IMG/VR virus record: IMGVR_UViG_3300034045_000073
Span: 1-24,268 of that record
From: a virus
Lineage: Duplodnaviria; Caudoviricetes
Direction: 5' to 3' (one strand)
DNA length: 24,268 nucleotides
Shown here: positions 3,332 through 23,435 of the stretch, one piece after another
How the letters are laid out: each line of letters opens with the position of its first letter
How positions within the stretch are numbered: position 1 is the stretch's first letter
Program-made: the position numbers and the translations under genes
The notes under the pieces: model-generated
Databases searched by the model: none
What the model was told of the DNA's origin: nothing
What the model saw: only the letters and a program-made list of their open reading frames with translations

Positions 3332-3360
3332 TTTACGTATTTTAAAATTGGGGATCGACG

Positions 3361-3852
3361 ATGGCAACAGCAATACAACCGACTGATATTAAATTTTATG
3401 AGTCAACAGGCAATTTAGGTGGTGCAATTACAGCAACAGAAATTGTTACCGCAACTATGAATAATATGTTTCGCAACATTACGTCAGCAGAGGCAGCAAC
3501 AGGTATCACACTTTTTGGTGTGCTTTATGTGAAACAAACCTCAACCTATAACGGTTCAGCGACCAAAGTCTGGATTCAATCTAACACACCTAGTCCAGCT
3601 ACAGCCCTTACTATTGGTTTAGGTTCTGCTGGTGTTAACAGTACAGAACCCTCAATAGGCTCTGACACTACACCGCCCACTGGCATTACCTTTGTAACTG
3701 CTATTGATGAAGCTAACTCACTTACTGCACCTGATTTAGCAGCGGGAGACTACATAGCTATTCATGTTAAATATGTTGTTGACCCTGCGGCACCAGCTAT
3801 CAACTTAGACAATATGGTTCTACGTGTGAAAATGGACTCACCAAGTCTTTAA
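3361..3852 (+). CDS. Phage structural protein, 163 aa, beta-rich
   Basis: Clean ORF with GGGG SD and the ATCGACG-ATG motif; T/A/G-rich; follows the fibre gene. Confidence 0.6.
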   Translation: MATAIQPTDIKFYESTGNLGGAITATEIVTATMNNMFRNITSAEAATGITLFGVLYVKQTSTYNGSATKVWIQSNTPSPATALTIGLGSAGVNSTEPSIGSDTTPPTGITFVTAIDEANSLTAPDLAAGDYIAIHVKYVVDPAAPAINLDNMVLRVKMDSPSL

Positions 3853-3868
3853 GTAATAGGAGTTTAAT

Positions 3869-4210
3869 ATGGTGTCTCCAGTAGGGATTATTAAGAAAAC
3901 CCTTAAAGTGGCTTTGGGTCGTAACGACCCAAAAACACTCACTGTCATTCAGGACGGGCTCCCAGTTGATTTTATTGCTAGTGGTGTTACAAAGCTTGGG
4001 ATTCTAATTAATGGTGTTGAGTATTTTTCAACTGATGGCTATATGACCTATGATGCTAATGGTGTTATTACGTTTAAACTGGGGAGTATTCCTAGCATGA
4101 CTAAAGGTAAATACCCTGTTAGGTTGTTTTCATATACAGCGCAAACCCCTTTGGGGCAGCCAATATATACTGAGAAAACAGATTTTAGACTAGCCGTTGA
4201 ATTTTATTAA
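3869..4210 (+). CDS. Small phage structural/accessory protein, 113 aa, Ig-like pattern
   Basis: AGGAG SD upstream; alternating beta-strand pattern and GKYPVRL motif; followed by a terminator. Confidence 0.55.
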   Translation: MVSPVGIIKKTLKVALGRNDPKTLTVIQDGLPVDFIASGVTKLGILINGVEYFSTDGYMTYDANGVITFKLGSIPSMTKGKYPVRLFSYTAQTPLGQPIYTEKTDFRLAVEFY

Positions 4211-4236
4211 AAAAGCGCTACTTAGTAGCGCTTTTT
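4210..4236. terminator. Bidirectional rho-independent terminator
   Basis: AAAAAGCGCTAC-TTA-GTAGCGCTTTTT perfect inverted repeat with A and T tails, immediately after the stop codon. Confidence 0.85.
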
Positions 4237-4356
4237 ATTGTCTTTGTAACTCTACTCGAAGTCACCACTAAGTCTTCACAATAATCCCTGTGGTAATATA
4301 ACTACTACAATAAACTCACCCAGAAGTCATAAACCATTATGAATTCAGACATTTTG

Positions 4357-4386
4357 GTGACAAATAAGTAGCACTCTATGTATACT
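4357..4386 (+). promoter_or_regulatory. Putative sigma70-type promoter for the membrane-protein/lysis operon
   Basis: GTGACA-18 nt-TATACT in the intergenic gap after the terminator, 65 nt before the 4452 start. Confidence 0.4.
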
Positions 4387-4451
4387 CAAAGGTAATTTAT
4401 GAAGTTGTGTTTTTATGTTGAAACACAAAGAAATCTCATTAGGAATCGACG

Positions 4452-5012
4452 ATGGCTGACCACAAAACAGACCGAGAAATACTTGAAAGTATTGAAAAAA
4501 TACTTAGCCAAGCTTTAGAGTCAAAACCTCATTATCGGTGTCATGCTGAAAAGCCACAAGCTATAAATATTGCTGAGGTGCTTAGTAATCTAAACGCCTA
4601 TCACGCTCAGCATGGTCAGCCGCTTGAGTCCCACCTACATCAGTCTCATCATGGGCTTAATACCCCTATAGGGTTGAATACTCTCGACGTTAACCGAGAC
4701 TCAAAATTATCCGTTACCATAAAAGACGTGATTGTTCTTGTTGGTGTTAGTATCGCTGCCACCTTGTTCTATGCAAGCTTCAACTCAAGACTCTCTAATT
4801 TAGAAGAAGCCAATGCTCACGCAGAGGCTAAGGTTTCTCAGGTAGTTGAAAATCAAATTACCCAGTTGCGGGTAAACAACGACAACAAAATTTACAAACT
4901 CCGTGATGATATAGAAAAAAAATTAACTCAAGTCAATGATAAGGCTGGTACTACATGGCAAATGCTGAGAACAACTCAAAAAGATGTAGAACTTTTAAAA
5001 AAATCTCGTTAA
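4452..5012 (+). CDS. Single-pass membrane protein with His-rich N-terminal part and C-terminal coiled coil
   Basis: TM segment VIVLVGVSIAATLFYASF; heptad-like tail (RLSNLEEANAHAEAK...KDVELLKK); HAQHGQPLESHLHQSHHG; AGGA SD plus start motif. Confidence 0.7.
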   Translation: MADHKTDREILESIEKILSQALESKPHYRCHAEKPQAINIAEVLSNLNAYHAQHGQPLESHLHQSHHGLNTPIGLNTLDVNRDSKLSVTIKDVIVLVGVSIAATLFYASFNSRLSNLEEANAHAEAKVSQVVENQITQLRVNNDNKIYKLRDDIEKKLTQVNDKAGTTWQMLRTTQKDVELLKKSR

Positions 5013-5419
5013 TTGTTCTCTTTTTTGTTCTCAGCTTATGGTTGTCAGTTTGTCTAGCTGACCCTGTTGTGAACAAGAAAAACCCGACTAAATTTGTCAC
5101 ACGCGCAGAGCTCGAAGACTTGTTTATGGGGAGAACACCTTATTGGGATAATGGTGAAAAAGTTATTCTTGTGTTATTGCCATTAAGGTCAATATCGACA
5201 CAGGAACTCTTAAATGAATTGAATATACCTATGTATATTTATAAACGTAAATTGGCGCGGCTATCAAAAGATTCTTTTGGAGAACTACCAATTTACGTTG
5301 ATGATACCTATGATATGTTGTTGGTAGTTGGCTCTGAGCCTAGAGCCTTGAGCTTCGTCAGAAGCAATACCATTATCTTAGAAACTGATGATATTAAACT
5401 TTTACAGGTGACCCCATGA
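4955..5419 (+). CDS. Exported single-lobe periplasmic-binding-protein-like protein (family often annotated phosphate ABC transporter substrate-binding protein)
   Basis: Signal peptide (KKISLIVLFFVLSLWLSVCLA|D), then VVNKKNP...RAELEDLFMGRTPYWDNG and MLLVVGSEPRALSFV, matching the family pattern V(N/H)PxN...LxxIFxGxxxxWxdG...VxxxPgAigYv. Confidence 0.7.
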   Translation: MANAENNSKRCRTFKKISLIVLFFVLSLWLSVCLADPVVNKKNPTKFVTRAELEDLFMGRTPYWDNGEKVILVLLPLRSISTQELLNELNIPMYIYKRKLARLSKDSFGELPIYVDDTYDMLLVVGSEPRALSFVRSNTIILETDDIKLLQVTP

Positions 5420-6648
5420 AAAGACTACCAAGTAGGATAATTTTTATTTGGATGTGTCTATTAATTGCAGCAAGTTTCAGTGTTTTTTCTAGTAGATATA
5501 CACAAGTAACTGATAACACTAGTGCTCGTATAACCATTTTTGGTGGGGTGACACACATTGACTCCGAGCATGAAAGCTTATTTAAATCTCCAATGTCTGA
5601 ATTGGGTGTGAATCTATTAAAAAACTATCCCTCTGGGCTCAGTTTCAAGGCTCAGACAAGTTTACGCCCAGCCCTACAAAATAAGGTAGGTCTTGATTGG
5701 TTTTATCTAAATTATGAGTTCAGCAAAAACTTTAGTTTTGATGTTGGGTTGCTTGATGCCAATATGGGGTTGCAAGGCTCTGGGATTCAAAATCCTTACG
5801 CTAGATATTCAGTAATTCCAATTCAAAGCACCATGTTTACGACGACACTCGGAGTAGCTTCATTAATGACTGGTGTACGAGCTAGTTACAAGCGGTATAT
5901 TTCGGCACTCGCTACTAACTTATCACTATCAGCTACTTACGGTGAGCCACGTTTTTCTCCCTCTGAATCTGAAAGTATTTTATCAGCATTACTAAAAGAG
6001 ACTTGGATTGAGGGTTATCCAACCTATGACAGTAAGTGGCAAGTTGAGCTTAAAGCAAAAACTAGGCGTTGGGATTTATCCTTAACAATTGATGATATTG
6101 GCTATACCTTTGATTCATATAATTTAGAGCAGAAACACTTTAGACAAATGGTTGCTAGTGTGCGCAGGGCGAGTATACGAACTGAGTTTCTAGCTGAGCT
6201 TTATCTTGGCAACGCCAACCCACTGCGTAGTTCGGATTTTAACAAAGCACCTATACCTGAGGATGCCCCTGAGCAGCCACCTTTTGCTAAAGGTGGTATT
6301 AGTGGTTTCAACGTTTATGTTAGTCAGTTACTTATGGATAGAGTAACTATGTATGGGGGGATTTCCTTATTCTATTTCGATACGGAATCACCACATGGTG
6401 ACTACTGGGAATCGGTTCGTCCAGAGGGTGAAATATACCAATATCCTAAGGAATTCAGGTATAATGAAGACTTGATGCTTGGTTTTCGTTACGACTTTAC
6501 AGATGACCAAGCACTTACATTTGAGATACACAGAAGTAAAGGTGTTCTAGCTAATCGCTACAATTATTTTTCTGACCCACAAGCAAAATCTAATATCGAT
6601 GATACTACGTGGTATGTGTATGCACTCAACTGGTCATTTATGTTTTGA
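5416..6648 (+). CDS. Outer-membrane beta-barrel (porin-like) protein
   Basis: Signal peptide, amphipathic strands (ELGVN, LDWFYLNYEF, MLGFRYDF, LTFEIH) and a C-terminal beta-signal YALNWSFMF; ATGA overlap with the upstream gene. Confidence 0.75.
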   Translation: MKRLPSRIIFIWMCLLIAASFSVFSSRYTQVTDNTSARITIFGGVTHIDSEHESLFKSPMSELGVNLLKNYPSGLSFKAQTSLRPALQNKVGLDWFYLNYEFSKNFSFDVGLLDANMGLQGSGIQNPYARYSVIPIQSTMFTTTLGVASLMTGVRASYKRYISALATNLSLSATYGEPRFSPSESESILSALLKETWIEGYPTYDSKWQVELKAKTRRWDLSLTIDDIGYTFDSYNLEQKHFRQMVASVRRASIRTEFLAELYLGNANPLRSSDFNKAPIPEDAPEQPPFAKGGISGFNVYVSQLLMDRVTMYGGISLFYFDTESPHGDYWESVRPEGEIYQYPKEFRYNEDLMLGFRYDFTDDQALTFEIHRSKGVLANRYNYFSDPQAKSNIDDTTWYVYALNWSFMF

Positions 6649-6665
6649 GTATTGAGGTTTTCAAC

Positions 6666-7223
6666 ATGTTAAATTTAGGCAAAAAAGTTTCTAAGATGTT
6701 AGAGCAATTACTATTAATTGAGGGTGGTTATAGCAACCAAGCTTATGACTTAGGCTCTGAAACTACGTTTGGAATAACCAAAGCCATAGCTGTTAAACAT
6801 GGTTACACAGGAGAAATGCGTGACTTACCTCTTGGTGTTGCTAAACAAATATATCTAACTGATTATTGGGTTAAACCAAAACTCGATAAACTTGCAGAAC
6901 TGAGCTTCCCTATTGCCGCAGAATTATTTGATACGGGGGTAAACATGGGTGTTTCAACCAGTATTAAGATGTTACAGCGATTACTCAACGCCATGAACGT
7001 GCAAGAGAATCTCTTTCCTGATTTAGTTGTTGATGGTGTGTTGGGGAGTAAGAGCCTGAATGCCTTAGATGCTTACTTGGGTTATAGGACTGGTACAGGC
7101 GAAAAAGTCTTGTTAAAAGGTTTGAATTGTTTGCAAGGTACAAGGTATATTGAACTTGCAGAGAAAAGAAAACAAAACGAACAATTCGTTTATGGCTGGC
7201 TTTTGAAGCGAGTCAATATTTAA
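6666..7223 (+). CDS. Endolysin, glycoside hydrolase family 108 with C-terminal peptidoglycan-binding domain
   Basis: EGGYSN...D.GSETTFGIT catalytic motif, FDTGVNMG, LVVDGVLG, FVYGWLLKRV. Start moved from 6609 to ATG 6666, which has a GAGG SD. Confidence 0.9.
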   Translation: MLNLGKKVSKMLEQLLLIEGGYSNQAYDLGSETTFGITKAIAVKHGYTGEMRDLPLGVAKQIYLTDYWVKPKLDKLAELSFPIAAELFDTGVNMGVSTSIKMLQRLLNAMNVQENLFPDLVVDGVLGSKSLNALDAYLGYRTGTGEKVLLKGLNCLQGTRYIELAEKRKQNEQFVYGWLLKRVNI

Positions 7224-7242
7224 TAAAATTAGGTTATCGACG

Positions 7243-7761
7243 ATGGCAGACTGGAAACAAATCATTGGGGCTGTAGCCCCAGCTTTAGCAACCACCGCTG
7301 GAACACCCCTTATTGGTTCCGCAGTTCAATTCCTTGTTGATAATTTTCTTACTGATGACGAACGCGATTCTAAGTTACCTGATGAAGTTAAGTTATCAAA
7401 AGTCATGGCTAACTTATCCCCTGAACGTATGGCTCAGTTGAAACAGCTTGATAATGATTACAACGTTAAGATGCAAGCACTTGATATAGATGTTTTTAAA
7501 CTAGAGGTTCAAGATAGAAGTAATGCTAGACTCCAAAACAAAGATTCTAAAATGCCAGCAATCCTGTGTTTGGGTTTGTCAGCATTTGTAGGATTAATTA
7601 TTGCCGCGCTTCTTTTTGTACATATCCCCGATGATTCAAAAACCATTCTAGAACTACTATTAGGTATTATTATTCGAGAATGGGCTGGTTCTATGCACTA
7701 TTGGTATGGAACAACTAGAGAAAATAGCGATAGAAATAGAGCCACGTTAACCAAATTATAG
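7243..7761 (+). CDS. Holin-like membrane protein
   Basis: Follows the endolysin; N-terminal IGAVAPALATTAGTP motif, two C-terminal hydrophobic segments and YWYGTT (compare FxFGSS in phage holin-like proteins). Confidence 0.65.
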   Translation: MADWKQIIGAVAPALATTAGTPLIGSAVQFLVDNFLTDDERDSKLPDEVKLSKVMANLSPERMAQLKQLDNDYNVKMQALDIDVFKLEVQDRSNARLQNKDSKMPAILCLGLSAFVGLIIAALLFVHIPDDSKTILELLLGIIIREWAGSMHYWYGTTRENSDRNRATLTKL

Positions 7762-7785
7762 CTCCCTGCCACTCCTGTGGTTTTT

Positions 7786-7811
7786 GCCCCGTACCCACGG
7801 GGCTTTTTTTT
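7786..7811 (+). terminator. Rho-independent terminator ending the late/lysis transcript
   Basis: GCCCCGT-ACCC-ACGGGGC followed by T8. Confidence 0.9.
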
Positions 7812-7854
7812 ACTGGTCTGATGTGTTATTTTGATTTTTCGGTTGCATACTAAC

Positions 7855-8114
7855 TGTATTCAAATTGTATTCTTTTTGTATGCTTTTTTACTGAATTGTC
7901 CCCAAATTGTATTCTTTTTTAGGCACTATTCAGGCACTAACTAGGACAGTTATCCCCATAACTGATTGATTTATGAAAGCTATAAAGCCCCTCAGAGATG
8001 ACTCTGGATTAAGAGTCTTGTTATATCAAGGCAAGCAGGTTTTCTTCTAAGTTAGTGTTTTTTCTGAGTTTTTAAAGCTCTCGAAAATTCAATGTATTCT
8101 TTTTGTATTCTTTT
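7855..8114. mobile_element. Phage attachment site attP
   Basis: Non-coding DNA at the 3' end of int. 11-bp direct repeats TGTATTC(TTTT/AAAT) at 7855, 7866, 7877, (7897), 7908 and at 8093, 8104. AGGCACTA repeats at 7921 and 7932. IHF consensus at 7959-7971. GACTCT-6-AGAGTC inverted repeat at 8000-8017. Confidence 0.75.
7959..7971 (-). promoter_or_regulatory. IHF binding site
   Basis: Minus strand AATCAATCAGTTA is a perfect match to WATCAANNNNTTR and lies inside attP. Confidence 0.7.
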
Positions 8115-8116
8115 GA

Positions 8117-9277: not shown

Positions 9278-9525
9278 TTACTTACAGCCTCTAAATTGAT
9301 CCACAAACGTTTACCACCATTAGGTACACTTGCATGAACACCATGTACCCAAACTCCTTTAGCTAAACGTTTTTTTACTGCCCCCTCTGTTTCTAAAAAC
9401 GTCTGACAGTAAACTGGCAATGGTAACGCTTTAATTGACCCAGCTAAGGCTAGCATTGGTGATGTTAATAATAAGTTGGCGGCTGCATTATCAACCGCAG
9501 TTAACTCTTGGTTTTCATTTGTCAT
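9241..9525 (-). CDS. xis: Excisionase
   Basis: Small ORF overlapping the int start; ETEGAVKKRLAKGVWVHGVH...RLWINLEAVSKW pattern of phage excisionases. Confidence 0.75.
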   Translation of the reverse strand: MTNENQELTAVDNAAANLLLTSPMLALAGSIKALPLPVYCQTFLETEGAVKKRLAKGVWVHGVHASVPNGGKRLWINLEAVSKWALENSQEDYI

Positions 9526-9540
9526 CGTCGATTCCTAATT

Positions 9541-9762
9541 TTACTCACGTTCTCTTATATAATAGTTTCTCTCTCCTTTAGGGCAGCGCTTATTAAAAGC
9601 TTTTAATATACACTTTTTGACTTGGGGAGAGTGTCCTTTGGCACAAATACGTTTACCACATTTGCCACAGGTGATTTTTGTTCGCTTGATACTGTTACCT
9701 TGTTCATCAGCTTCGTTTAACAACTCAACTGTACATTGAACCATGTAGCTTTTTAATACCAT
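9541..9762 (-). CDS. Small Cys-rich (putative Zn-binding) phage protein
   Basis: CGKC...C...C...RCPKGERNYY; AGGA SD plus start motif. Confidence 0.7.
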   Translation of the reverse strand: MVLKSYMVQCTVELLNEADEQGNSIKRTKITCGKCGKRICAKGHSPQVKKCILKAFNKRCPKGERNYYIRERE

Positions 9763-9782
9763 CGTCGATTCCTAATTGTTAT

Positions 9783-11807
9783 TTAAATCTCTACGCGACT
9801 TTCAGCCTCTAACTCCTTGTGTGAAGCTTGAAGTACTTGACCAACTTGAGGTGTTATTTTTTGGATACAACCCCAAGTATAATTAGCTCTTTCTTCATCC
9901 ATAGCGGAGTCTATTTCATCTAACATCATAACAGGAAGTACCTTATGAGTTAAAATTCTACCCAAACCAATACGTAAAGCTAAATTAGCTATATCTTTGC
10001 TTGAACCATTTAAGGTTCTTAATGGTTGACTGTCTACGGTAACTTCAAAGTCTGGTTGTATTTCTACGCGTTGATTTAAACCACCCGTCATTTCATACAT
10101 CAAGTAACTAGCTACTTTATTTAGTGACGGAATTAAGAAGTTTTGAACTTTATCTTTAACCTCTTTAACTGCGGCTCTAGCCTTTAAGTGTTCATCGTAA
10201 AAGGCTTTTTGTTTATCAATCACACGCTGATGCTCAGCAAAACTTTTTACTTGTTGAGTGTAAATATCAAGTTCTCGGTCATACACACGCCACTGCGATA
10301 ATTGTTGATTTAGCTCAGAACGACGATTATTAAGCGCTGTTTGTATATCGGCACCATAATCTTCAATTAATCTTTTCAAGGTTTCTTGAGCTTCATTATA
10401 TGTAGTAAGGTCTTCCATATAATGTTCTTTGGCGTCTAAGTATCTTGCTGTAGCAATATGGTATTGCTGCATTAATTGTTCCCGTTGACTATCTAGCGTA
10501 GCACAGTTAACTTCCCAAGCTTTTACTTGAGCAACATAACGATTTTCTGCCTTAGTAACCAACTCAGTGTAACGGGCTAGATCTTGTTTATATTGCTGTA
10601 ACTTAACACGTAAGTCGCTCAATTCGTTAAATCTACGTTTGTTCTCAACTAGGTTTAATTCTCGAATCTGTTCATCTAAGGTTAAATATTCAGCATTTAA
10701 GTTAAGCTGTTTTTCAATGGCTAACCATTCTTGAACTGTTAGCTTTGGTGCTTTCTTAGGTAACTTCATTGCTCGTAAGGTATCTATTTCATCATGCTCC
10801 AAATGAAAACCTTTTTTGCAATGTGGGCAGTTAATCAACTCACCAGATTCTAATCGGTCTAGTTTCTGGCGCAAGGCATAGTTATCCCACGCAGCCACTA
10901 TTGCTTCCTGTGTTTTGTAGTCGTTAGGAAGTTTTACCTCAGGTTGATATTTATTTTGAGCATTTACCCAGTTATTAAATAGCGGGGCATTTTGCTGTAA
11001 ATTTAGCGCTAAAGTTTTGAAAAAGGTTTCAAAATCTCCCTCAACCCAATCAGGAATTGCTGGGGGTTTTGGGGCTTCTTGAACAAGCTCAGCTTTTTCA
11101 GGTTTCTCAGGGAGCAAAATCTCTGTAGGCTTTATTGGTGCTACAGGTTCAACGGGTAGCCTAATGGCTGTTGCTTTAGCTAGTTTTTCAGCTTCAACAT
11201 CTAAACCTTTTAAGGCAAGTGTTATCTTAGACTCGCTTGCTAGTTCTGGTTTTAAAGGTTCTTTAGGAGCTTGTATCAAAGATTCTTGTTGTTCAATAGC
11301 TGCTTTTTGTTCTCTAAGTGTTATTTTCAAACTATCCATTAAGCTGTCCATTTGTGTTAACCCAGCTACAGAATCAATCATAGCCTTGCGCTCGGTTGGA
11401 CGCATATTAGCTAAAGCTTGAATATCACCTTGGGCACACCAATGAGCAATTTTGAAGACATCAAAATTATAACCTAAAGTTCTAATGACCCATGTGTTTA
11501 CTGGTTTAGCCCCTGAAACAATCTGTTCGTCATTAAGAAATACTGCGGCTTTAGTTTTGGTGCGTTTAATGTTGTAGATTTTATCCTTTATAGCTACTAC
11601 TAGTTCGAGTTCAATACTTTTGTAGTCAGTTGCTACTCCGCGCAAGGCACTAGCCCCAAACAGGGCATAAGCTATCATCTCAAAAGTCATTGATTTACCT
11701 TTACCGTTCTTTCCTGTGATAAGGGTAGAACCAGCTTCAAAATTAAGCTCTTGGCTTAGCGTTTTTAGGTTGGCAAAAGTAATATCATATTGTAAATAAG
11801 AAATCAT
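9783..11807 (-). CDS. sbcC: SbcC/Rad50-like recombination ATPase
   Basis: Walker A GKNGKGKS, Q-loop AQGDI, zinc hook CPHC, signature LNGSSKD, Walker B MMLDEID, H-loop SHK, long coiled coils. Confidence 0.9.
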   Translation of the reverse strand: MISYLQYDITFANLKTLSQELNFEAGSTLITGKNGKGKSMTFEMIAYALFGASALRGVATDYKSIELELVVAIKDKIYNIKRTKTKAAVFLNDEQIVSGAKPVNTWVIRTLGYNFDVFKIAHWCAQGDIQALANMRPTERKAMIDSVAGLTQMDSLMDSLKITLREQKAAIEQQESLIQAPKEPLKPELASESKITLALKGLDVEAEKLAKATAIRLPVEPVAPIKPTEILLPEKPEKAELVQEAPKPPAIPDWVEGDFETFFKTLALNLQQNAPLFNNWVNAQNKYQPEVKLPNDYKTQEAIVAAWDNYALRQKLDRLESGELINCPHCKKGFHLEHDEIDTLRAMKLPKKAPKLTVQEWLAIEKQLNLNAEYLTLDEQIRELNLVENKRRFNELSDLRVKLQQYKQDLARYTELVTKAENRYVAQVKAWEVNCATLDSQREQLMQQYHIATARYLDAKEHYMEDLTTYNEAQETLKRLIEDYGADIQTALNNRRSELNQQLSQWRVYDRELDIYTQQVKSFAEHQRVIDKQKAFYDEHLKARAAVKEVKDKVQNFLIPSLNKVASYLMYEMTGGLNQRVEIQPDFEVTVDSQPLRTLNGSSKDIANLALRIGLGRILTHKVLPVMMLDEIDSAMDEERANYTWGCIQKITPQVGQVLQASHKELEAESRVEI

Positions 11808-12823
11808 TATTCAGTGGCTCCCTGAGTGGTTTCCCAAAGGTTTGAGGTAAGTTCTTGGCTTACACCATTTTCAGTCAATGTTTGAAAGAAAATGCTCTTT
11901 AGGTCAAAACCATCAATGTCTATGTTAAGGTCTACTTGTTGTTGTTCTGTTTTTATTTTACCGACCGTAAGAGATAAACAATCTACTTCGGTATCAAACA
12001 CATCACCTTGAGTTAACATTACGCGTAAGTTCTTCAAATGGTAAGTATCGGGTTTTTTATCTAGTTGGTCTAGAACTTGGTCTTTTGTTCTAGTCACATA
12101 CCATAGTTCTTCTGAGTCTTCTGAATGGGAATATGGTTGCAGACTACCTGTGATGATAACAGGCGTTTTGAACTCTGACTCAAACTCTGTTTTATTATGA
12201 TAGTGACCTGAAACTATAAGTTTGGCGTCTTTTAATAATTCATAAGGGATCATGTTTGTGTTTGACTCCCCAGAAATTAAACCAAAGTCTTTAATGTCCC
12301 AATGTCCTACCGCTATATAGTCTTGTTTCTTTTCTTTGGTTAGATGCAAACCACAGTCTACGATTTCTTCGGCTGTTTTGTAAGGATGCCAAGGGCAAAT
12401 TAGAACCTCAGTATCATCAACAGTAAACCACTCAGGAAATTCACTAACTACTGAGACATTTGGGATTCCACGACATAACTGCTCAAACAATTCAAATGAA
12501 GACACTAATTCAGTGTCTCTTGAGGCATCGTGATTCCCACGCAAAACTACGTATTTAATATTTGGATTACGCTCAGCAGCTTCTTTATAACTGAAAAAGG
12601 CAAATAAGATTATTTCTTCTGGGACTCTAAATTTATCAAATAAATCCCCAACACAAATATGTAACTTTGTGCCTGATTTTGGTTTGAGCAACTGATTTCT
12701 GAATTCGTTGTGAACAAAGTTTTCGCGTTCACCACGTCGAATTGGGGGCACACCTGAGGTGAATTTTCTTCCTAAATGAGGATCACCCATAAATGAGATG
12801 TTTGCGTTTTCTAATATTGTCAT
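11807..12823 (-). CDS. sbcD: SbcD/Mre11-like metallophosphoesterase nuclease
   Basis: GDPHLG, VGDLFD, RGNHD, GHW and SGHYH motifs; stop/start overlap with the SbcC gene. Confidence 0.9.
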   Translation of the reverse strand: MTILENANISFMGDPHLGRKFTSGVPPIRRGERENFVHNEFRNQLLKPKSGTKLHICVGDLFDKFRVPEEIILFAFFSYKEAAERNPNIKYVVLRGNHDASRDTELVSSFELFEQLCRGIPNVSVVSEFPEWFTVDDTEVLICPWHPYKTAEEIVDCGLHLTKEKKQDYIAVGHWDIKDFGLISGESNTNMIPYELLKDAKLIVSGHYHNKTEFESEFKTPVIITGSLQPYSHSEDSEELWYVTRTKDQVLDQLDKKPDTYHLKNLRVMLTQGDVFDTEVDCLSLTVGKIKTEQQQVDLNIDIDGFDLKSIFFQTLTENGVSQELTSNLWETTQGATE

Positions 12824-12831
12824 CGTCGTTC

Positions 12832-13275
12832 CTAGTTTTTAGTTTTAGTGCTGGTTTGTCTTGGTTCCCAGTAGTATTTTAACAAATCTTTTTCTAATAA
12901 AGATTTTTTTTCTGCCCGTAGTATAGCCTGTGCAGGGACTTTATACCAGCGGTCAGAAGTTAGAAAATGAATAAAAAAGAAATATTCCCCTGAGGCTTTT
13001 GAAACTTTGGTTGCTGAACGCCATTGAGAAGCCTTTATATTCGAGAAGTTGAAGCGACTGCCACTAGCAATGCTTTTTACTTCTGCATAAAAAGTTCGCC
13101 CTAAAATAGTGATTATATAGTCTGATGGTTTTGCAGCGACTATCTTCCGAGTTCTTCCTGAAGCTTTAAAATTAGCATCTGCATAGTCTTCAAACCTATA
13201 AACATCTGCAAAAGTTGGTAGTCTCCCCCAATAAGCTTCAAAGATGTTCTCACTGTTCTTGCCATTATTTTTCAT
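12832..13275 (-). CDS. PD-(D/E)XK nuclease, probable Holliday junction resolvase (RecU-like)
   Basis: GKNSENIFE...PSDYI...FYAEVKS...SQW; lies in the recombination cluster. Confidence 0.7.
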   Translation of the reverse strand: MKNNGKNSENIFEAYWGRLPTFADVYRFEDYADANFKASGRTRKIVAAKPSDYIITILGRTFYAEVKSIASGSRFNFSNIKASQWRSATKVSKASGEYFFFIHFLTSDRWYKVPAQAILRAEKKSLLEKDLLKYYWEPRQTSTKTKN

Positions 13276-13295
13276 CGTCGATTTCCTGATATTGC

Positions 13296-13715
13296 TTAGT
13301 TATTTCTTGGTGTTCGCTTTTTAAACACAAGGTTTTTATTTTTGTTACTTCGATTTCTCTTTGTTCTGCGAACCTCAGCCATGTAGCTGGCATGATGTTT
13401 ATGCAGTTGCTCTAAAGCATAACGAGACTGTTCAGCAGTTACCTCACCATCAACCTTTCCCCAGAGGTTCTTTCGTAGGGCTCCAGTTCTAATAGTCTTT
13501 AGATATTTAATGCTGTGTGTGTGGAATTTTAGTGCCTCAAACAAGGTTCTAGAGCTAATTACTTTTGGAGATAAAATAGCTCTTATTTGTTTAAATATGT
13601 TTACACTTAAAGGTGAAACCCATTTGACTTTGTATGTGCTGTGATTATCACAATAATCACGAATCCAAAGCCACGCCTCGTAAGGCGTGTCAAAGGTTAT
13701 TTGTTCTTTTTTCAT
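13296..13715 (-). CDS. ProQ/FinO-domain RNA-binding protein
   Basis: PLSVNIFKQI...SRTLFEALKFHTHSIKYL...GALRKNLWGKVDGEVTAEQSRYALEQL aligns by eye with the FinO-domain consensus PLKIGI...LRxALxxYTxSxRYL...GAxRxDLxGxxxGxVxxE; basic tail. Confidence 0.8.
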   Translation of the reverse strand: MKKEQITFDTPYEAWLWIRDYCDNHSTYKVKWVSPLSVNIFKQIRAILSPKVISSRTLFEALKFHTHSIKYLKTIRTGALRKNLWGKVDGEVTAEQSRYALEQLHKHHASYMAEVRRTKRNRSNKNKNLVFKKRTPRNN

Positions 13716-13728
13716 AAGTTATCCAACG

Positions 13729-16700: not shown

Positions 16701-17217
16701 CCTGACCACTTTTTTTATCATAAAGCGCTGTGGACGTTGAATAATCTCTAACATAGGAAACGTTGGATAAATTAGCTTCGGGTAGAGCTTTGTTCAATAA
16801 ATATAAAAAATCTTCTGGGTTATCTATCTTGTTTGGGTTTTGTGGGTCTGGGTCATAATCTAGCATGATTAGGCTAGAACCCTTTTGAATCATTGATAAT
16901 TTACTTCGTGTACCATAAATTCCTGAGTCATCTTCGTGAACAGGATAAGATAGTTTTCTAGCTTCAAACTCACTTCGAGTTAATACTTCGACTTTAGATG
17001 TTTTGCTATCCATCCAACCAGTAGCTAAACACTGGTTTTTATTTAAATTTTTAATGACTGATGGGAACTCAGCTAAAGTTGTAGTTCTATGCTCAGAAAA
17101 ACCTCTATATAAAGCTGGATTTGTTGATAGAATCTTCCCATTTTCGAGTTTTAATGTTTTAGTTAAATTACTGTTATGAGAGGTTACAACTGAATAAGCT
17201 AAAGGTTTGTTTGTCAT
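13729..17217 (-). CDS. Primase-helicase / replication initiator (AEP-like N-terminus plus SF2 helicase of UL9/CyRepA1 type)
   Basis: MLDYD and GFHIY primase-like motifs; GEKGTGKT, VVIDEFVQ, LMDAD, SPSLGTGVSID, QHLARVR. Start reassigned to 17217 (MTNKPL), where the TCGACG-ATG motif and an AGG SD lie. Confidence 0.8.
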   Translation of the reverse strand: MTNKPLAYSVVTSHNSNLTKTLKLENGKILSTNPALYRGFSEHRTTTLAEFPSVIKNLNKNQCLATGWMDSKTSKVEVLTRSEFEARKLSYPVHEDDSGIYGTRSKLSMIQKGSSLIMLDYDPDPQNPNKIDNPEDFLYLLNKALPEANLSNVSYVRDYSTSTALYDKKSGQVIREPEGFHIYMQINAGENLEAFAKHLELGCWRANLGYIKIGSSANRLTRTILDLAVFTPERLIYAAGADIAETETFYQNLPMAEYVEKDIKEINTKTFKKLTPKQSAELLSLQTQLKESDSVMERVQAKKQQLETRLVSKNHFTKHPLTEQEAQRTVSAMSRYILHPEHIIYFEDGREITVAELLQRSSEFDGVGVLDPFRPDKGFSRAKFYANLTEQAPVINSFVEGGRTFNLNDTYNEFIRVRTVEHSDIELLTLDPVILNERYFPEITLKKGITLLKGEKGTGKTTAIARKIKACEGRVLAISHRISLVSTLCKDFNLTSYNTFNNDKAHLIRPEPRLGVCYNSLHRVSGLVYDFVVIDEFVQLIRTIKSGIVKHKFLCLKVLRHLLQTAKYVILMDADMSKDIIVFLAEGEFSLFPEKPNFHVIVNKYLPAKGKKLNIYRDAVDINKPDRLSFVLDFREAIKDSGVFYASNSRNNILFMAAQAVEVLGGDPELSEEHFITDFGDKRVITITAHNSQTKDVQYFIKNINSELRETDIFMSSPSLGTGVSIDSVDGKPKLQKVFAYFTKRAENLPSDCLQHLARVRDCTDLNLVITHYNTHLELDPIKIVQTEVLGNKGILDKHLTSLAVFNWETGAITFNDQGWTTYYGELTARENLEKNSFYPNFIQQIAVEGFELEDASSAPTQLCQELKVYEQNLKKTLKQVERETLINTPLITDKEFEELKSKLTLTADEQRQYFKKAQADLFGFPQETDELNDLITLSSAKLKGRATSLIIGANADDLALLDVISRLDKKRHAFYLRALFDRRELLLGLLEHLHITVDDLGLSFDETPLTDYELYLTYEYLYSQADKIKIIFGSEIKEVANERDYKKEISKSLKWLGLTWETGSRIFSQVNGVRKRLASISLSSFEIMVSDIKRAQKNSKSRIFTPLVRIPDNLRSYVFSLVNGGTYSEYNSFFEALEPSYRQRVDAALLRIYEGIYRAAA

Positions 17218-17239
17218 CGTCGAATGCCTGTTTTTAAGG

Positions 17240-17257
17240 GGGTGCTTTGTAGCACCC
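17240..17257. promoter_or_regulatory. Short hairpin in the primase-helicase leader
   Basis: GGGTGCT-TTGT-AGCACCC inverted repeat. Confidence 0.5.
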
Positions 17258-17266
17258 ATAAATAGA

Positions 17267-17920
17267 TTATAGCTGTGTTAAATCAACAGGGGTATATCCC
17301 GCGGATTTTAAAATCTTTCCTTTTGGGTATATCTTTCCAGAAGCACAAACAGTGTGTTTTGCTGATGAACATATCCAAACACTACAATCATCACCATAAA
17401 GTTGGGTTTGTAACTTTTTGTCTAACGGGTCTAGATTTATGCTAACACCTAGTTTTTCGTACTGCTGCAAAGTTTGTTCATAATATTCTTTTGTTACAAC
17501 TTTACTTAGATTACTTTTGTGTACCAAAAACCAAGCATCTAGAATATTAAACTGTAAGTGCTGTGCCATTAAAACCAAAGTATTTAGTAAGTTATAAACA
17601 TCGGGTCTAGTCGTTTGTAAGTCTTCTAGATAAACTATGCCGCTATGAACCAAGTCACCAACAAGCACATAAATACTGTCCGTAATCGCATCTATTTTGT
17701 CGGCTCTGGTTTTGGCTGTAGCAAGCTCTATTAGTTCTTCTTTTAATAACTCCGCGTGAAGTTGTTCATCTTTATAACTAAGAATTTTTTGTTCGCAGGG
17801 TAGGTCAAATATTCGTCTGAAATCCAGAATATCTGAATAGAAGCGTAAGTACATAGAATCCGTTAGTGTTGGATAACTATTTGTCTCAGCCAAGATTCCT
17901 GTGTTTGTGTTGTTTGTCAT
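17267..17920 (-). CDS. MazG-like / all-alpha NTP pyrophosphohydrolase (DR2231/PRA-PH-like)
   Basis: LLKEELIEL...DAITDSIYV...VHKSNLSK...GKILKSAGYTPVDL. Confidence 0.8.
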   Translation of the reverse strand: MTNNTNTGILAETNSYPTLTDSMYLRFYSDILDFRRIFDLPCEQKILSYKDEQLHAELLKEELIELATAKTRADKIDAITDSIYVLVGDLVHSGIVYLEDLQTTRPDVYNLLNTLVLMAQHLQFNILDAWFLVHKSNLSKVVTKEYYEQTLQQYEKLGVSINLDPLDKKLQTQLYGDDCSVWICSSAKHTVCASGKIYPKGKILKSAGYTPVDLTQL

Positions 17921-18002
17921 CGTCGATCTCCAAGTTGTAGTTATATAATCCTCAGATTACAGAGGTAAATCAAGGGGGTGCTTTGTGTAGTTTGGGGTAG
18001 AA

Positions 18003-18215
18003 TTATTTATCTATATGATTGATAAATGAATTATCCTCAAAAATTTCTTGCTTTGAATTTGGAATACTGTTTCGGTAAGTTTCCATTTGCTTTGCAGATT
18101 CAAAAGCTTTGATAAAAGCTACAAAAACTGTTCCTACAAATATAATTAGGATAAAAACTATTAACCCAATAACTACCCAATTGGCATACATTAAATAAGT
18201 ATCTGATTCACTCAT
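18003..18215 (-). CDS. Small single-TM membrane protein
   Basis: Hydrophobic run WVVIGLIVFILIIFVGTVFVAFI; overlaps the end of the exonuclease gene. Confidence 0.6.
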   Translation of the reverse strand: MSESDTYLMYANWVVIGLIVFILIIFVGTVFVAFIKAFESAKQMETYRNSIPNSKQEIFEDNSFINHIDK

Positions 18216-18774
18216 TGTAAAGTCCTTGTTGTATTTTTCTAATCAATGCCCAAGTTAATCTTGCATCAACTCTAGCCCCGTGTAAGTCCCCCTCTGGCTC
18301 TAGCCCAAGGCTTTGTGCAGCGTCAGCCAACTTAAACCATTTACAACCACCCCTAAGATGGTCATAAACTTTTTTATACTGTGCAAACTCTAACATGGCG
18401 CAGTAAAAGCCCACACTAAAATGCCGACCATCATCACCAAGATTGTTAGCTATAGAGCTTTGCATTAATAATCTACCATCAAAGGCAGCGTTGTAGGCAA
18501 CAAGTAGCTTGTCCTTAAAGAGGGATGGCAACACATCGTTATAAACCTCTGCCCAAGAGGGGGCGTCTTTTATATCTTCGGCATAAATCCCGTGTACAAG
18601 TGAGGCTCCAAGTTCTATAGTGCCAACAGGTTTTATTCGCGTATCTAAAACCACATCCCCAGTTTTACCATCTACAACGGCTATTTCGCATATTTCAGCA
18701 TTATCACTAAGCCCTGTGGTTTCAGTATCAAAGACTAAGTAGTCTTGGTTAAGCAGACTTTTGAATGGTTGCAT
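18208..18774 (-). CDS. DEDDh 3'-5' exonuclease (DnaQ-like)
   Basis: FDTETTG, AYNAAFD, LHGARVDA. Confidence 0.9.
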   Translation of the reverse strand: MQPFKSLLNQDYLVFDTETTGLSDNAEICEIAVVDGKTGDVVLDTRIKPVGTIELGASLVHGIYAEDIKDAPSWAEVYNDVLPSLFKDKLLVAYNAAFDGRLLMQSSIANNLGDDGRHFSVGFYCAMLEFAQYKKVYDHLRGGCKWFKLADAAQSLGLEPEGDLHGARVDARLTWALIRKIQQGLYNE

Positions 18775-19540
18775 TAGCTAGTGCTCCTTTAAGGTATTGT
18801 TTATTGTTTATTATCGTTACGTTCTTTTTAAACCAATTAGTGCATGAATCGATAACTTTCTGCGTTGGTCTAAGCTGGCTTGGAATATCACTTAAACCAG
18901 CATCAGAGATACGGATTTCTGAACCAGTCCATGTGATTAACCAACCAACACCTAAAGGGTTCCAGTATTTTATAATTATTCCCTGTGTGGTGTTATTTTG
19001 ATATTTAACATCTACTTTTTCAGGGTGTAAATATAGAGTTTCTCCTGTGTCAGCAAATTTTCTTAAAGGTATAGCCTCTAATAGTTCAAGTTTGGACTGA
19101 TACTCTTTGAACTGTTCATGCTCTTTGTTGTAAGTGCTACTTAGGAGGTTGAAGTTTCTAATCTTCTCGTCGAGTTTGATTTTGGTTTCTTTTAATCGTC
19201 GTTTAAAGCCTTTTATGTCACCCTCAGCTTTAAGCGCCTTGAGTTCTTTTTCAGCTTTAACTCGTTTAGTTGTTTCTTCCAAAAGCTTTCTATTTTGTTG
19301 TTGTGGGTTCCCAGCAACACCATTCAGAGCCTCTTTTAAATTGTATTTAAGCTGTGATATTTCCAACCGCGCAGTAACTAATAAATCCTGCAACTTTTCA
19401 TAATCATCAACAAGCATATTGTATTCTTTTAGTTCATTATCCATTCTGAATATATATTGCTGGGTTAAGAGTCCTAAATCCATTTTGGCTATTGATTCTA
19501 GTAGGGTGTGTTGTGCTTGGTCTACCGTCGATTCATTCAT
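18749..19540 (-). CDS. Coiled-coil protein of unknown function
   Basis: 263-aa ORF with a long E/K/L heptad region and a small C-terminal alpha/beta domain. Confidence 0.7.
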   Translation of the reverse strand: MNESTVDQAQHTLLESIAKMDLGLLTQQYIFRMDNELKEYNMLVDDYEKLQDLLVTARLEISQLKYNLKEALNGVAGNPQQQNRKLLEETTKRVKAEKELKALKAEGDIKGFKRRLKETKIKLDEKIRNFNLLSSTYNKEHEQFKEYQSKLELLEAIPLRKFADTGETLYLHPEKVDVKYQNNTTQGIIIKYWNPLGVGWLITWTGSEIRISDAGLSDIPSQLRPTQKVIDSCTNWFKKNVTIINNKQYLKGALANATIQKSA

Positions 19541-19566
19541 AATAAGTCTCTAATCTAAGTTATTGG

Positions 19567-19586
19567 GCGAGGGTTGTTACCCTCGC
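19567..19586. promoter_or_regulatory. Intergenic stem-loop (possible terminator or mRNA-stability hairpin)
   Basis: GCGAGGGT-TGTT-ACCCTCGC; no U-tract on the transcribed (-) strand. Confidence 0.5.
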
Positions 19587-19630
19587 TAGTTATTTTACTA
19601 TTTAATTTTAGTTATTAGTAATTTTATTTA

Positions 19631-22483
19631 CTAAAGGCTCTTTGGTACTTGTTGTAAATAGTCCACAACATACTGCCTGTGTTTTTTATCTAACTTAGTC
19701 CCCGCGAGTTCTTCTGGTATATAACCCTCTAGCACAGGGGCTTCATCTAACTCAATCTGACCAAAAGGGGCTTTTACTGGGTGATAGGGTTCCAATGTTA
19801 ACCCAACTGAAACCGTACCATCTAGTTTTAACCATTTAACTAAGTCAGGGTGACTACACATAACTTCTAAAATTCTATTCCCAAAAGCTACAGCTTGTGT
19901 GTGGTGAACAGAAAAAACTAATTCATCGTGGATTGGCACTTTAAAGTAAGCATCCCATTGTGTGTCTGGAGAGCTTATTTCGTCTACAAGCTTTTTGATT
20001 GACCGCTTAGCAAGTGTAGCACAACCACCTTGAATTTTAGCGTTTACAACTTGGTTACCAGCCCTGCGTTGAATCTTTTTAGCCACGAATTGTCCAAATG
20101 TTGATACCGCAGGATGTTGGTAAGCATCAAACTTTGCAGTGAAAGTCATAAACCAATCTTGAGTAGCTTCATATCGAGTTCGTCTATGACCATCAAACAC
20201 CCAAACAAAACCAGCATCTCTGGCTTCGTCAATAGTAGTAAGACGCCAATGCTCCGCAACTTCGAAAGTATTTCGATAGTTCTCTGTACCGAGCCACATT
20301 TCATCAAGTGTCCAACCCAGTTTTTCTTGGACTGTCATCAAACTTCCTGAATACCAATATCCAAAGTTTGAGGGTTTACCCGCATCACCACGCCAGAATT
20401 TGTAAGCACTTTTAGCATCAAGTTCTTGGTGTGTTATAGGGTGCATAAAGACTCTCGGAAACTTAGCTTTTAACTCCGCTATCTGTTGTGCGTTGCTGGT
20501 AACGAGTTCTTTCAAGGTTTCATCCCCAAAGTCAGGGTAGTAAACCTGAATTGCTGAGGTTGCCGCGCCAAGATGTAGGTCTGTATATGGTAAGCTACCA
20601 TAGGCTTCAAAGAACATTGGATCATGGGATTCTTCACCAATCAAAACCAACTCAACTTGCGACCAATCCACTGAGACTAGAACATGGTCATCTTTTTCTG
20701 GCAAGAAAAAACCCCGAACGTATGTTGATTCGCCTCGTTTACTTAGTTGCATGGTGTTGGGGTTTTCACAAGACATACGTCTAGTGTTTAATGTTGACCT
20801 GATGATTGGGTACATCCGTTTTGTATCTGGGTCAGTCAAGTATAAATAAGGGTTTATATAGAGTTTGATTCTTGTGTCTATTTTTGTGAGCGTGTTTAAT
20901 AGCGAAATTATTTCTAGTACACTCTCTGAATCATAGTCATTAACTAATACTGAGCCTATGTTGTTTTGACTTTCAGCGTCTAAATTTCTAAAATCTTTAT
21001 TATATCTGCTGAGTTCTTTTACCCAAAGCTCTACAGACTTTCCAAGCTGTGCAGGGGATTCTCCAAGTAGCTTAGCAACATCAAGTAATTTTCCTCTAGC
21101 CTCAACATCTGTGCTTATCTCACCTTTATTATAAACAAAAGGCAAATCACACAAATCATGCAAAATGACTCTTTGAACCATGTAATGCTGTAAATTAGGT
21201 CTAGTTGCTTTAACTTTAGCAGTTACCGTGGCATCTTCTTGGGCTTCCCACTTTTCTGTTATAGCTCCATTGACTAGACGAGCAACCTCAAAATCACTCA
21301 AGCTATCGTTGTAAGCGTCAACAAAATCCACTATCTTAGCTCTAGCTTTCTCAAAACCTTTTAGGGTTTTACCTAGATACCATTTGGCTTGTTTAACTAC
21401 CAATCTAGGCGTTGGCTCTGGTTTAAAGCTCAGTTTTTTTAGTACCCTAGCTAAGGCTCTAAGCGTTTCAACGTAGCTTTCTCTCTCAACCAACTCTCGT
21501 TCATAGATTGCGGCTTCATTGACGCGCCAACCCGTTGCCCAACAATCTGACCAAATATAAGGCATAGGATTTTCTTGTTCAAAAAATACTTGTATTAAGT
21601 TGGGGTTGGTTTCTTGCATGAATTGACAAAGCCTATCAAACAGGCGAACACACCAGTAAGCGTCATCAGCACCATATTGAAGTACTTGTTCTGAGTCTAA
21701 AAGCCCCATGTGCGCTTTGCCAGCTAAGCAATCTTTGAATTCTTGTTGTTCATAATTGAAGAAAGACTTAACCGCTTTCTTTAACCCATAACCATAAGTC
21801 ATGCTTTTTACAAAACCATTATAGCTATGGTCTGCTATTGATTGTTTGGCAATAACTTGGGTGATTAGGTCTTGCTGCTCGGTTGTGAAATTATTATCCC
21901 ATGTACAGTTAGTGAAGTGTTTTTTGATGTTAGGTATAAGCTTTGAAATACCGCGCAAATCTGAGTTCTTAAAGGTTTGGATTGAGTATTCATCATCATT
22001 GTAGGCACTAACAGCCATTTGCATAGTATCTACATAATTCTTTCCTAAATCAAAGTTCCAAGTTTTTAAGCACATAGTACGCTCAAAACAATAATTATGT
22101 ATTACCCAAGTACAAGAGGATTTTATAATTTCTAAAGCTTGTAATACGACTGATAAATCAACTCTATTATGTTTGTCTTTATGTGCAACATTAACATAGT
22201 AATTCTCAGAATCTCCACGTACATAAATAGAAAAACCTGTAATGACTGTTCTGTTAGTATCAAACACGAGTTTCTTTGGTGATTTGTAAGCTTCACTCGT
22301 TGGGTCAATAACCATAAACTTATTCAACCCATCGTGACGTTTACTGTCTTCCGTCTCAATATCGAAACCAACAAGCGCTTTTGAACTTGCTGCATGATTT
22401 GCTACATCTAGTAATAGGTGTTGGTTTTGGTTGGTTATTAATTTTTGTAGAATACCTGTGTATTCATTTTCAATAGTTATCAT
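19631..22483 (-). CDS. polA: Family A DNA polymerase with 3'-5' exonuclease domain
   Basis: Exonuclease motifs FDIETED, HNYCFER, YGADDA; motif A VDWSQVEL, motif B GKPSNFGYWYSG, motif C IHDELV. Confidence 0.95.
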   Translation of the reverse strand: MITIENEYTGILQKLITNQNQHLLLDVANHAASSKALVGFDIETEDSKRHDGLNKFMVIDPTSEAYKSPKKLVFDTNRTVITGFSIYVRGDSENYYVNVAHKDKHNRVDLSVVLQALEIIKSSCTWVIHNYCFERTMCLKTWNFDLGKNYVDTMQMAVSAYNDDEYSIQTFKNSDLRGISKLIPNIKKHFTNCTWDNNFTTEQQDLITQVIAKQSIADHSYNGFVKSMTYGYGLKKAVKSFFNYEQQEFKDCLAGKAHMGLLDSEQVLQYGADDAYWCVRLFDRLCQFMQETNPNLIQVFFEQENPMPYIWSDCWATGWRVNEAAIYERELVERESYVETLRALARVLKKLSFKPEPTPRLVVKQAKWYLGKTLKGFEKARAKIVDFVDAYNDSLSDFEVARLVNGAITEKWEAQEDATVTAKVKATRPNLQHYMVQRVILHDLCDLPFVYNKGEISTDVEARGKLLDVAKLLGESPAQLGKSVELWVKELSRYNKDFRNLDAESQNNIGSVLVNDYDSESVLEIISLLNTLTKIDTRIKLYINPYLYLTDPDTKRMYPIIRSTLNTRRMSCENPNTMQLSKRGESTYVRGFFLPEKDDHVLVSVDWSQVELVLIGEESHDPMFFEAYGSLPYTDLHLGAATSAIQVYYPDFGDETLKELVTSNAQQIAELKAKFPRVFMHPITHQELDAKSAYKFWRGDAGKPSNFGYWYSGSLMTVQEKLGWTLDEMWLGTENYRNTFEVAEHWRLTTIDEARDAGFVWVFDGHRRTRYEATQDWFMTFTAKFDAYQHPAVSTFGQFVAKKIQRRAGNQVVNAKIQGGCATLAKRSIKKLVDEISSPDTQWDAYFKVPIHDELVFSVHHTQAVAFGNRILEVMCSHPDLVKWLKLDGTVSVGLTLEPYHPVKAPFGQIELDEAPVLEGYIPEELAGTKLDKKHRQYVVDYLQQVPKSL

Positions 22484-22511
22484 CGTCGATTCCAGTTATA
22501 AAAAATAGAGA

Positions 22512-22805
22512 TTAGCTCTGGTTGTTTTCTTTTCTAATTATATCTAGGGCTAACTTAGAATAACCCTGAATATCTTGGAAATTGTCATCATAAAGAGGAT
22601 TTCCATTAACGTGTCTACTGATTTTATGCAAAATCATTTCAATAGCTTCCTTTTGGTAGGCTGGGAGATTAACCCAGTTCGGATGTTTGGATACAGAAGC
22701 TTTTAAGGATTGTGATAGTTTTGAGTTTACTTTGAAACTGCCATAATTGGCTCCGCGTTCAGCTAGTATATCGTCGATTTTTGGCATTTTATTTATATTT
22801 CTCAT
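22512..22805 (-). CDS. Conserved small phage protein (DUF6378-like helical domain)
   Basis: ILAERGANYGSF...EAIEMILHKISR...DDNFQDIQGYSKL; the start could alternatively be ATG 22787. Confidence 0.7.
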   Translation of the reverse strand: MRNINKMPKIDDILAERGANYGSFKVNSKLSQSLKASVSKHPNWVNLPAYQKEAIEMILHKISRHVNGNPLYDDNFQDIQGYSKLALDIIRKENNQS

Positions 22806-23157: not shown

Positions 23158-23246
23158 ATATAACAACATAAATAAATGGGACGCAAAACAGTTTGTCGCC
23201 CCTCGTTAACTTTTGTACTGTGCGCCCTTTTTTATAAGGGTTAGAA
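23158..23246 (+). mobile_element. attC-like recombination site A (89 bp)
   Basis: R'' ATATAAC, spacer AACAT, L'' AAATAAAT, inner stem GGGaCGCA/TGCGCCC, T-rich L', R' GTTAGAA. Confidence 0.7.
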
Positions 23247-23435
23247 AGAATTAACTCCAAACCCTGCCGCTACTGCCATAAACATTCTGGCTTGACGTAA
23301 ATCCGCCTTACTACTTCTGTATTTGTCAGGATTTTCTATGCGGTCAATTCTTTCAGCTTCATTTGCTGCCTTACGTTTTTTTATTGTCTCGTTGTGAATA
23401 CGTGCAGCTTCTTTCTTTTTCGCACTATTTCCCAT
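23241..23435 (-). CDS. Basic hypothetical protein, 64 aa (cassette gene)
   Basis: AGGAG SD; its TAA stop is the complement of TTA in the R' box of site A. Confidence 0.7.
   Translation of the reverse strand: MGNSAKKKEAARIHNETIKKRKAANEAERIDRIENPDKYRSSKADLRQARMFMAVAAGFGVNSF

Follow-up and report, generated by a model that had tools for sequence, protein, structure and literature searches.

Proteins of the FinO family act together with small RNAs that block translation, in trans in the case of RocC/RocR, as summarised in a review of the family (PMC9977716). The present analysis concerns a short motif, ATCGACGAT, found at the start codons of many genes in a 24,268-nucleotide stretch of a temperate phage (Duplodnaviria; Caudoviricetes), covering positions 1 to 24,268 of the IMG/VR record IMGVR_UViG_3300034045_000073 and hereafter called the window, as well as a candidate small RNA of the same phage that is complementary to this motif. 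In that review, RocC of Legionella pneumophila is a FinO-domain protein that works with a trans-acting small RNA ending in a terminator hairpin, which represses several mRNAs by pairing, much as suggested here (PMC9977716). However, RocC/RocR is chromosomal and has four competence targets, whereas the present system is phage-borne, would reach about 27–41 of the phage's own genes through a near-invariant private tag, and relies on a putative partnership. The plasmid systems FinO/FinP and FopA/Inc, as the same review presents them, also restrain a mobile element by means of a FinO-domain protein and an antisense RNA, and a two-hairpin RNA is predicted here too (PMC9977716). Their RNAs are encoded in cis and face one target, while here a single intergenic locus would act in trans on dozens of targets spread over the genome.

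Temperate phages provide another set of related RNAs. The c4 RNA of P1 and P7 and the sar RNA of P22 are described in a review of phage RNAs as molecules of 68–77 bases that pair at a ribosome-binding site, and differences in c4 sequence set heteroimmunity, as seed differences may likewise do here (PMC12197685). In that account both are directed at one antirepressor message, unlike the candidate described below, which moreover is without an Rfam match. The CI RNA of P4 is a similar temperate-phage RNA. More generally, the phage RNAs covered by the review act on one or few messages (PMC12197685). No description of the present system was found in the literature that was searched, which consisted of titles and the beginnings of abstracts, with few subscription papers; in the portions of PMC10232697 that were covered, the isolated relative Pseudoalteromonas phage KB12-38 appears for taxonomy only.

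The motif named SAS in cluster K mycobacteriophages is, according to the covered parts of two reports, likewise a private motif at many ribosome-binding sites, mostly after intergenic gaps and in one orientation; four K1 phages hold a single reversed copy, and the role of SAS was still called unknown in 2024 (PMC3203893, PMC11373665). The same layout of one orientation, starts after gaps and a single reversed copy is found here. SAS differs in its unrelated sequence, host phylum and phage family, and in ending short of the start codon; its 13-base consensus, as given in PMC3203893, is not what the start regions of the window carry, which show another sequence. In Adephagia, the single reversed SAS (L256:30655-30720, record positions 58654-58719, genes 92/93) lies in a hairpin loop of 10 bases. 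This hairpin is strong (z -6.1), has a terminator-like hairpin ahead of it, and is a candidate antisense RNA for SAS motifs. No reversed copy was seen in the 33 kb of Pixie that were read.

From the evidence set out below, we consider it likely that a phage small RNA pairs with the start-codon motif; it would block the translation of about 27–41 of the phage's own genes, probably with a ProQ/FinO chaperone and probably in order to silence the prophage. If this is true, the RNA would be a genome-wide translational repressor, about a third to half of the predicted genes carrying a private tag matched by one molecule. It would also give a role to a phage-borne FinO-domain protein and a testable answer to the cluster K SAS question, open since 2011. 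The natural seed variants are ready compensatory pairs and KB12-38 exists as an isolated member, hence the proposal is directly testable.

The start-codon motif

The start-codon motif is genuine and stands on many starts of a temperate phage; the window carries both an integrase and an excisionase. Nine exact copies of ATCGACGAT occur in the window; when up to one mismatch is allowed there are 25 matches against 1.74 expected, a count reached in 0 of 100 shuffles. The bases CGACG directly precede 10 of 26 hand-listed starts and none of the 645 remaining ATGs. As listed in a first-pass annotation made from the window alone, eight exact copies end on the AT of the start codons at 3361, 4452 and 7243 (plus strand) and 9525, 9762, 13275, 17920 and 22483 (minus strand), one-mismatch copies are present at 12823 and 17217, and three copies carry ATTAGGAATCGACGATG; these three are the ones at 4452, 9525 and 9762. 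The same annotation described a nearly invariant spacer between the Shine-Dalgarno sequence and the start; the Shine-Dalgarno side is more variable than it stated. The remaining exact copy and one further one-mismatch copy are each found within a gene, some 10 bases past its probable start.

The distribution over genes is broad. Among the tagged genes are those for the excisionase, an SbcD-like nuclease, a resolvase, a primase-helicase, a pyrophosphohydrolase and the DNA polymerase, together with capsid and tail tube genes, so that genes for excision, replication, the head and the tail all bear the tag. A three-gene cassette had been described as free of the motif; its first gene, starting at 4452, is in fact tagged, whereas the other two are not, and both of these overlap their upstream neighbour. 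Tags are found on 246 of 406 free-standing starts. Of the coupled starts, which are no more than 12 bases away from the upstream stop, 36 of 305 have one, and lack of room may explain part of this scarcity.

Two further records are relevant to the window. Record G001 is 99.94% identical to it across 22.7 kb and adds 10 kb, while record G002 (37 kb) carries head and tail genes and 15 copies of CGACGATG. The open ends of G002 and G001 do not overlap each other but match adjoining parts of one gene in the relative G011, from which it follows that they are likely two parts of one genome, and G002 likely the other half of the window phage. Four motif copies in G002 lie 5–18 bases upstream of the real start; thus, the ATG is part of the motif and not always the start codon. 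At G002 9886, 26610 and 28740, the ATG of the motif was seen to open a frame of 2–4 codons just before the true start of the terminase and of two tail genes.

A reversed copy and its proposed pairing with the tags

Eighteen of the 19 near-palindromic 9-mers in this phage share the orientation of their gene. The nineteenth, the sole reversed copy, lies at G002 26519 between the gene that follows the tape measure and a minor tail gene, where on the sense strand it stands behind a 9/12 promoter-like site and ahead of a hairpin. The complementary small RNA for which the first-pass annotation had proposed a search has therewith a candidate, outside the window, that co-varies with the motif. A reversed-copy cassette is found at the same intergenic tail site in all 13 clade genomes examined, while the two outgroups checked have no gap there; each of the 23 best tail loci contains it as well, many of these records being identical or nearly so. 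In each of the 13 genomes, those of the divergent KB12-38/G010 and G012 types among them, the seed is complementary to the motif of the same genome; it reads CATCGTCGAT in this phage, CATATTGTCAATCC in KB12-38, TATCGTCAATTTCC in G003 and TTTGTTAATCCT in G012.

A promoter-like site matching at least 9 of 12 positions lies 20–32 bases upstream of the seed in 8 of 10 genomes, the 3' hairpin shows two-sided changes that preserve pairing at 7 of its 10 base pairs (9 sequences), and a T-run follows the hairpin in relatives but not in this phage. The predicted folds consist of a hairpin, an open seed and a second hairpin in several cases, with the seed partly paired in KB12-38, G012 and L177. Neither the C4/CI antisense RNA nor any other Rfam covariance model is matched: a search returned 0 matches at E<=1 for three relatives and, for G002, seven weak matches far under the gathering scores. 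An RNA of 60–85 bases would very probably be transcribed from this locus, from a host sigma-70 promoter.

To examine the pairing, 340 sites near starts were taken from 10 genomes, selected by plain mismatch count and not by energy, and each genome was found to hold 27–41 sites within two mismatches of the seed complement. In one column, where the RNA has A, none of 281 targets has C; in G007, where the RNA has G, 17 targets have T and 15 have C; in this phage, where the RNA also has G, the target is C in 27 of 27. With its half T and half C, G007 looks like a seed change caught half-way. Over all columns, transitions that G·U pairing allows exceed those that abolish pairing (C to T 36/399 against G to A 7/576; A to G 26/784 against T to C 4/621), and this excess of G·U-compatible changes is a sign of RNA pairing. 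Without G007 and the near-duplicate G006 the counts are 42/941 for G·U-compatible and 9/949 for non-pairing transitions (P 1.4e-6), and with KB12-38 dropped as well they are 23/797 and 8/841. In 6 of 10 genomes no seed gives a better mean duplex than the genome's own, and distant seeds are far worse; in this phage the means are -18.5 with its own seed, -11.3 with that of KB12-38 and -9.2 with that of G012. The predicted duplex spans the AUG and the spacer. With high probability, the candidate RNA would pair with the tagged mRNAs.

The ProQ/FinO protein and the proposed silencing

A putative partner of the RNA is encoded in the window at 13296..13715 (minus strand), a ProQ/FinO-domain protein of 139 residues, a candidate small-RNA chaperone whose own start has no motif. 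It matches Pfam PF04352 (E=3.3e-14, 53.2 bits against a cut-off of 27), and a profile search finds the structures of E. coli ProQ, RocC and FinO with E values from 2e-9 to 5e-6. The structural model has a pLDDT of 87, and every Foldseek match listed at E<=0.001 is a FinO-domain structure (TM by query 0.47–0.57). Y71 and R81 are invariant in 8 of 8 and align to a Y and an R of E. coli ProQ (Y70 and R80), which are residues of the RNA-binding pocket. In a set of 13 clade records and 37 outgroup records of at least 65 kb (50 in total, shorter outgroup records having been dropped), the protein occurs in 12 clade and no outgroup records; G002 is the thirteenth clade record, and its partner G001 encodes the protein. 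Out of 50,697 phage records, KB12-38 alone gave a ProQ match, and a protein search with ProQ matched only itself among 5 candidates.

The motif follows the same boundary. Out of 70 polymerase loci, a start motif is enriched in this phage and 11 others, the very loci that match ProQ, while the remaining 58 show neither motif nor ProQ within 10 kb, a result of little power since the loci are short. In a quickly built tree of 24 rows, a branch with support 100 separates the 13 polymerases that go with a motif from the others. Use of the phage ProQ by the candidate RNA is reasonably probable. The ProQ gene itself lies within the replication gene block, after the primase-helicase gene. As a promoter for it, a 10/12 site at 13905-13876 was considered and set aside, the region having fewer such sites than its shuffles (25 vs 41).

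The mechanism that we propose would run as follows. The RNA would be transcribed from the host-type promoter and would cover the ribosome-binding site, spacer and AUG of tagged mRNAs, stopping initiation at the entry genes of coupled blocks; the abutting or overlapping genes behind them, mostly untagged, would then be silenced through translational coupling. ProQ would hold the 3' hairpin of the RNA, as the FinO-family review describes for RocC with RocR (PMC9977716), and both the prophage and incoming kin would be kept silent. Repression is strongly favoured over activation as the action of the RNA. A service in lysogeny or superinfection immunity, as opposed to lytic timing, is only slightly favoured; a host-type promoter and targets that extend across excision, replication, head and tail functions fit the silencing of prophage and incoming kin.

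Several observations weigh against this proposal. The candidate RNA gene lies outside the window, on G002, whose identity as the same phage we infer; the 3' hairpin of this phage is without a U-run and a terminator scan finds none there, and its promoter match is just 9/12 (2 found vs 0.8 expected). The wobble column of this phage shows no T although G·U would permit it, and in the other 4 of 10 genomes a foreign seed with the same core pairs slightly better than the genome's own. The genomes are kin, so that substitution counts are not independent and P values are overstated; in the same way motif, RNA and ProQ mark one clade, and their co-occurrence amounts to one event. The place of ProQ in the replication block fits a role in the lytic phase equally. 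Finally, 16 of 37 outgroup records have an integrase (12 of 13 in the clade) but no ProQ, and no motif was seen near their polymerase; the system is therefore not needed for temperate life in the family.

The last two points are shared by an alternative in which the RNA does pair with the tags, yet has its role during lytic growth, freed from a late transcript to halt or pace phage translation, or stripped from its targets by ProQ, with lysogeny resting elsewhere. The sense orientation of the RNA gene inside the tail operon also speaks for it. We regard it as unlikely, since a promoter-like site of its own precedes the RNA in most genomes and a blanket block accounts better than a timing device for the tagging of so many functional classes.

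A reading in which a phage protein, either a RegA-like repressor or ProQ itself, binds the tag on single-stranded mRNA, and in which the reversed copy is incidental or a modulator, is improbable. It would agree with a strand-specific tag at starts, and a precedent exists in the FinO-family protein PcnR, for which the review describes direct binding to a leader, independent of its antisense RNA (PMC9977716). However, it leaves aside that the reversed copy tracks every change of the tag and that target changes are biased to G·U-compatible ones. The first-pass annotation had offered a translational operator read by a phage protein or small RNA, or else a palindromic site for a dimeric DNA-binding protein; the small-RNA option is partly supported, with the co-varying candidate, and the palindrome and dimer option is not supported.

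That double-stranded operator or promoter element is quite improbable; the dimer on it would be a phage protein, for instance the Cro-type helix-turn-helix protein of the replication block. The near-palindrome of this phage and the A-rich stretches upstream of many copies would suit it, as would a weak helix-turn-helix match in G001 (E 0.0055) and a helix-turn-helix protein at the same place in G003. On the other hand, the motif types of relatives (ATTGACGAT, GGATTGAC, GGATTAACAAA) are mostly non-palindromic, the dyad being lost in most of them (as in ATTGACGAT and ATTAACAAA), and instead of a free orientation all copies but one point the same way; nor does an operator give a reason for the lone reversed copy between a promoter-like site and a hairpin. 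As far as can be read from the sequences, the motif is not a DNA operator. A promoter for a phage RNA polymerase was also considered and rejected, as the 834-residue candidate on G002 is a D5/primase-type protein. The most improbable reading, an RNA that enhances the translation or the stability of mRNAs with the tag and so prioritises phage messages, would explain why much-needed genes such as capsid, tail tube and polymerase are tagged, but a start codon under a duplex cannot be read and the predicted duplex covers both AUG and spacer.

If the RNA is a repressor, copies of the tag in sense orientation away from starts deserve attention. Such copies have a longer complementarity. Ranked against every other site of the same genome, they come first in KB12-38, G008 and G012, second in G010, third in G003 and seventh in G006; none was seen in G013, and G011 has short tandem copies only. 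The counterpart in this phage, near 6566 of G002, ranks 6 of 28 and lies behind a 10/12 promoter-like site, a match at chance level for the region. We tentatively suggest, with more doubt than confidence, that the off-start copy is a decoy RNA lifting the block. In KB12-38, G010 and G012 an early gene follows at a distance of 50–110 bases, and the copy may rather be a leader site. In the layout seen at L060:6490-6700 (minus strand; G002), the sense copy lies away from clear starts, after a D5-type primase gene and before the early region, and is followed by a T-tailed hairpin; the same layout was seen at G003 49343 (minus), G008 39192 (plus) and G011 ~39430-39550 (plus). Nearby, at G002 ~6250-6420 (minus) and at the same place in G003, G006, G007, G008 and G011, short tandem repeats lead into a conserved block of A/T tracts ahead of the first early gene, a candidate genome end or early promoter.

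A wider and frankly speculative extension, which we think rather unlikely, is an all-RNA lysis-lysogeny switch. Here the small RNA with its FinO chaperone would act as master repressor in a phage of 80 kb from which an S24-type cleavable repressor is absent, the sense copy near the early region would serve as antirepressor, and a seed path from A-U through G-U to G-C, with G007 half-way, would create immunity groups in which G-seed phages silence relatives yet escape them; the same logic would hold for cluster K SAS. The S24 repressor domain was found in 0 of the 50 records, clade and outgroup alike, including the 16 outgroup records with an integrase. An argument from this absence that the RNA replaces a lambda-type repressor was dropped as uninformative, given that clade and outgroup do not differ and that other repressors are possible. 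SOS control was likewise rejected, with no conserved LexA-like box and four scattered weak sites in 10 genomes.

Tagged genes, neighbouring features and relatives

On the plus strand of the window, motif copies mark the start of a 163-residue gene of no assigned function (phrog_13135; 3354..3363), the first gene (186 residues) of the overlapping cassette (4445..4454), and a 172-residue membrane gene after the endolysin (7236..7245), holin-like by position and from a family without known function. On the minus strand they mark the excisionase (9523..9532), a 73-residue gene (9760..9769), the Holliday junction resolvase (13273..13282), the nucleotide pyrophosphohydrolase (17918..17927) and the DNA polymerase (22481..22490). 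The integrase gene starts (9277) within the last part of the excisionase gene, and this start is without the motif. One-mismatch copies, also on the minus strand, stand at the start of the SbcD-like nuclease (12821..12830), with an SbcC-like gene coupled behind it, and at that of the primase/origin-binding helicase (17215..17224), which begins at 17217 and not at the upstream ATG at 17259. The two copies inside genes, both on the minus strand, are possible early-coding targets: a one-mismatch copy about 9–10 bases behind the start of a 263-residue gene (19524..19532; predicted duplex -18.7 kcal/mol), and the exact 9-mer about 10 bases behind the probable start, 22787, of a 91-residue gene (22770..22778; -19.1 kcal/mol).

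As to relatives, the polymerase is 52% identical to that of KB12-38 and 34–39% to those of JWF, Seuss and several Acinetobacter phages; the start motif was not found in the 50 kb screened of each of JWF, Seuss and Mystique. KB12-38 has no CGACGATG and carries GGATTGAC a few bases before many starts. In its early region (L001/L002), many tagged starts are preceded by a short GC hairpin and by another recurring word, TTAAACTAAAACT. An exact 15-mer scan of viral contigs returned 51 stretches, of which only L006, L027 and L041 come from this phage and the rest look like chance, and a scan of genome contigs gave five loci at 36–39% identity.

The cassette at 4452-6648 (plus strand) consists of overlapping genes of 186, 154 and 410 residues between the tail and lysis genes, the last two of which look exported; it has no Pfam match and almost none in PHROG, and tblastn gave no match in the nine relatives tested. 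Upstream of it, at 2480-3200, the end of a long open reading frame that is open at its 5' side consists of repeats of about 15 residues. A 95-base hairpin element occurs twice in the early region, at 23161-23253 of the window and at 9793-9884 of G001, the two copies being 86% identical.

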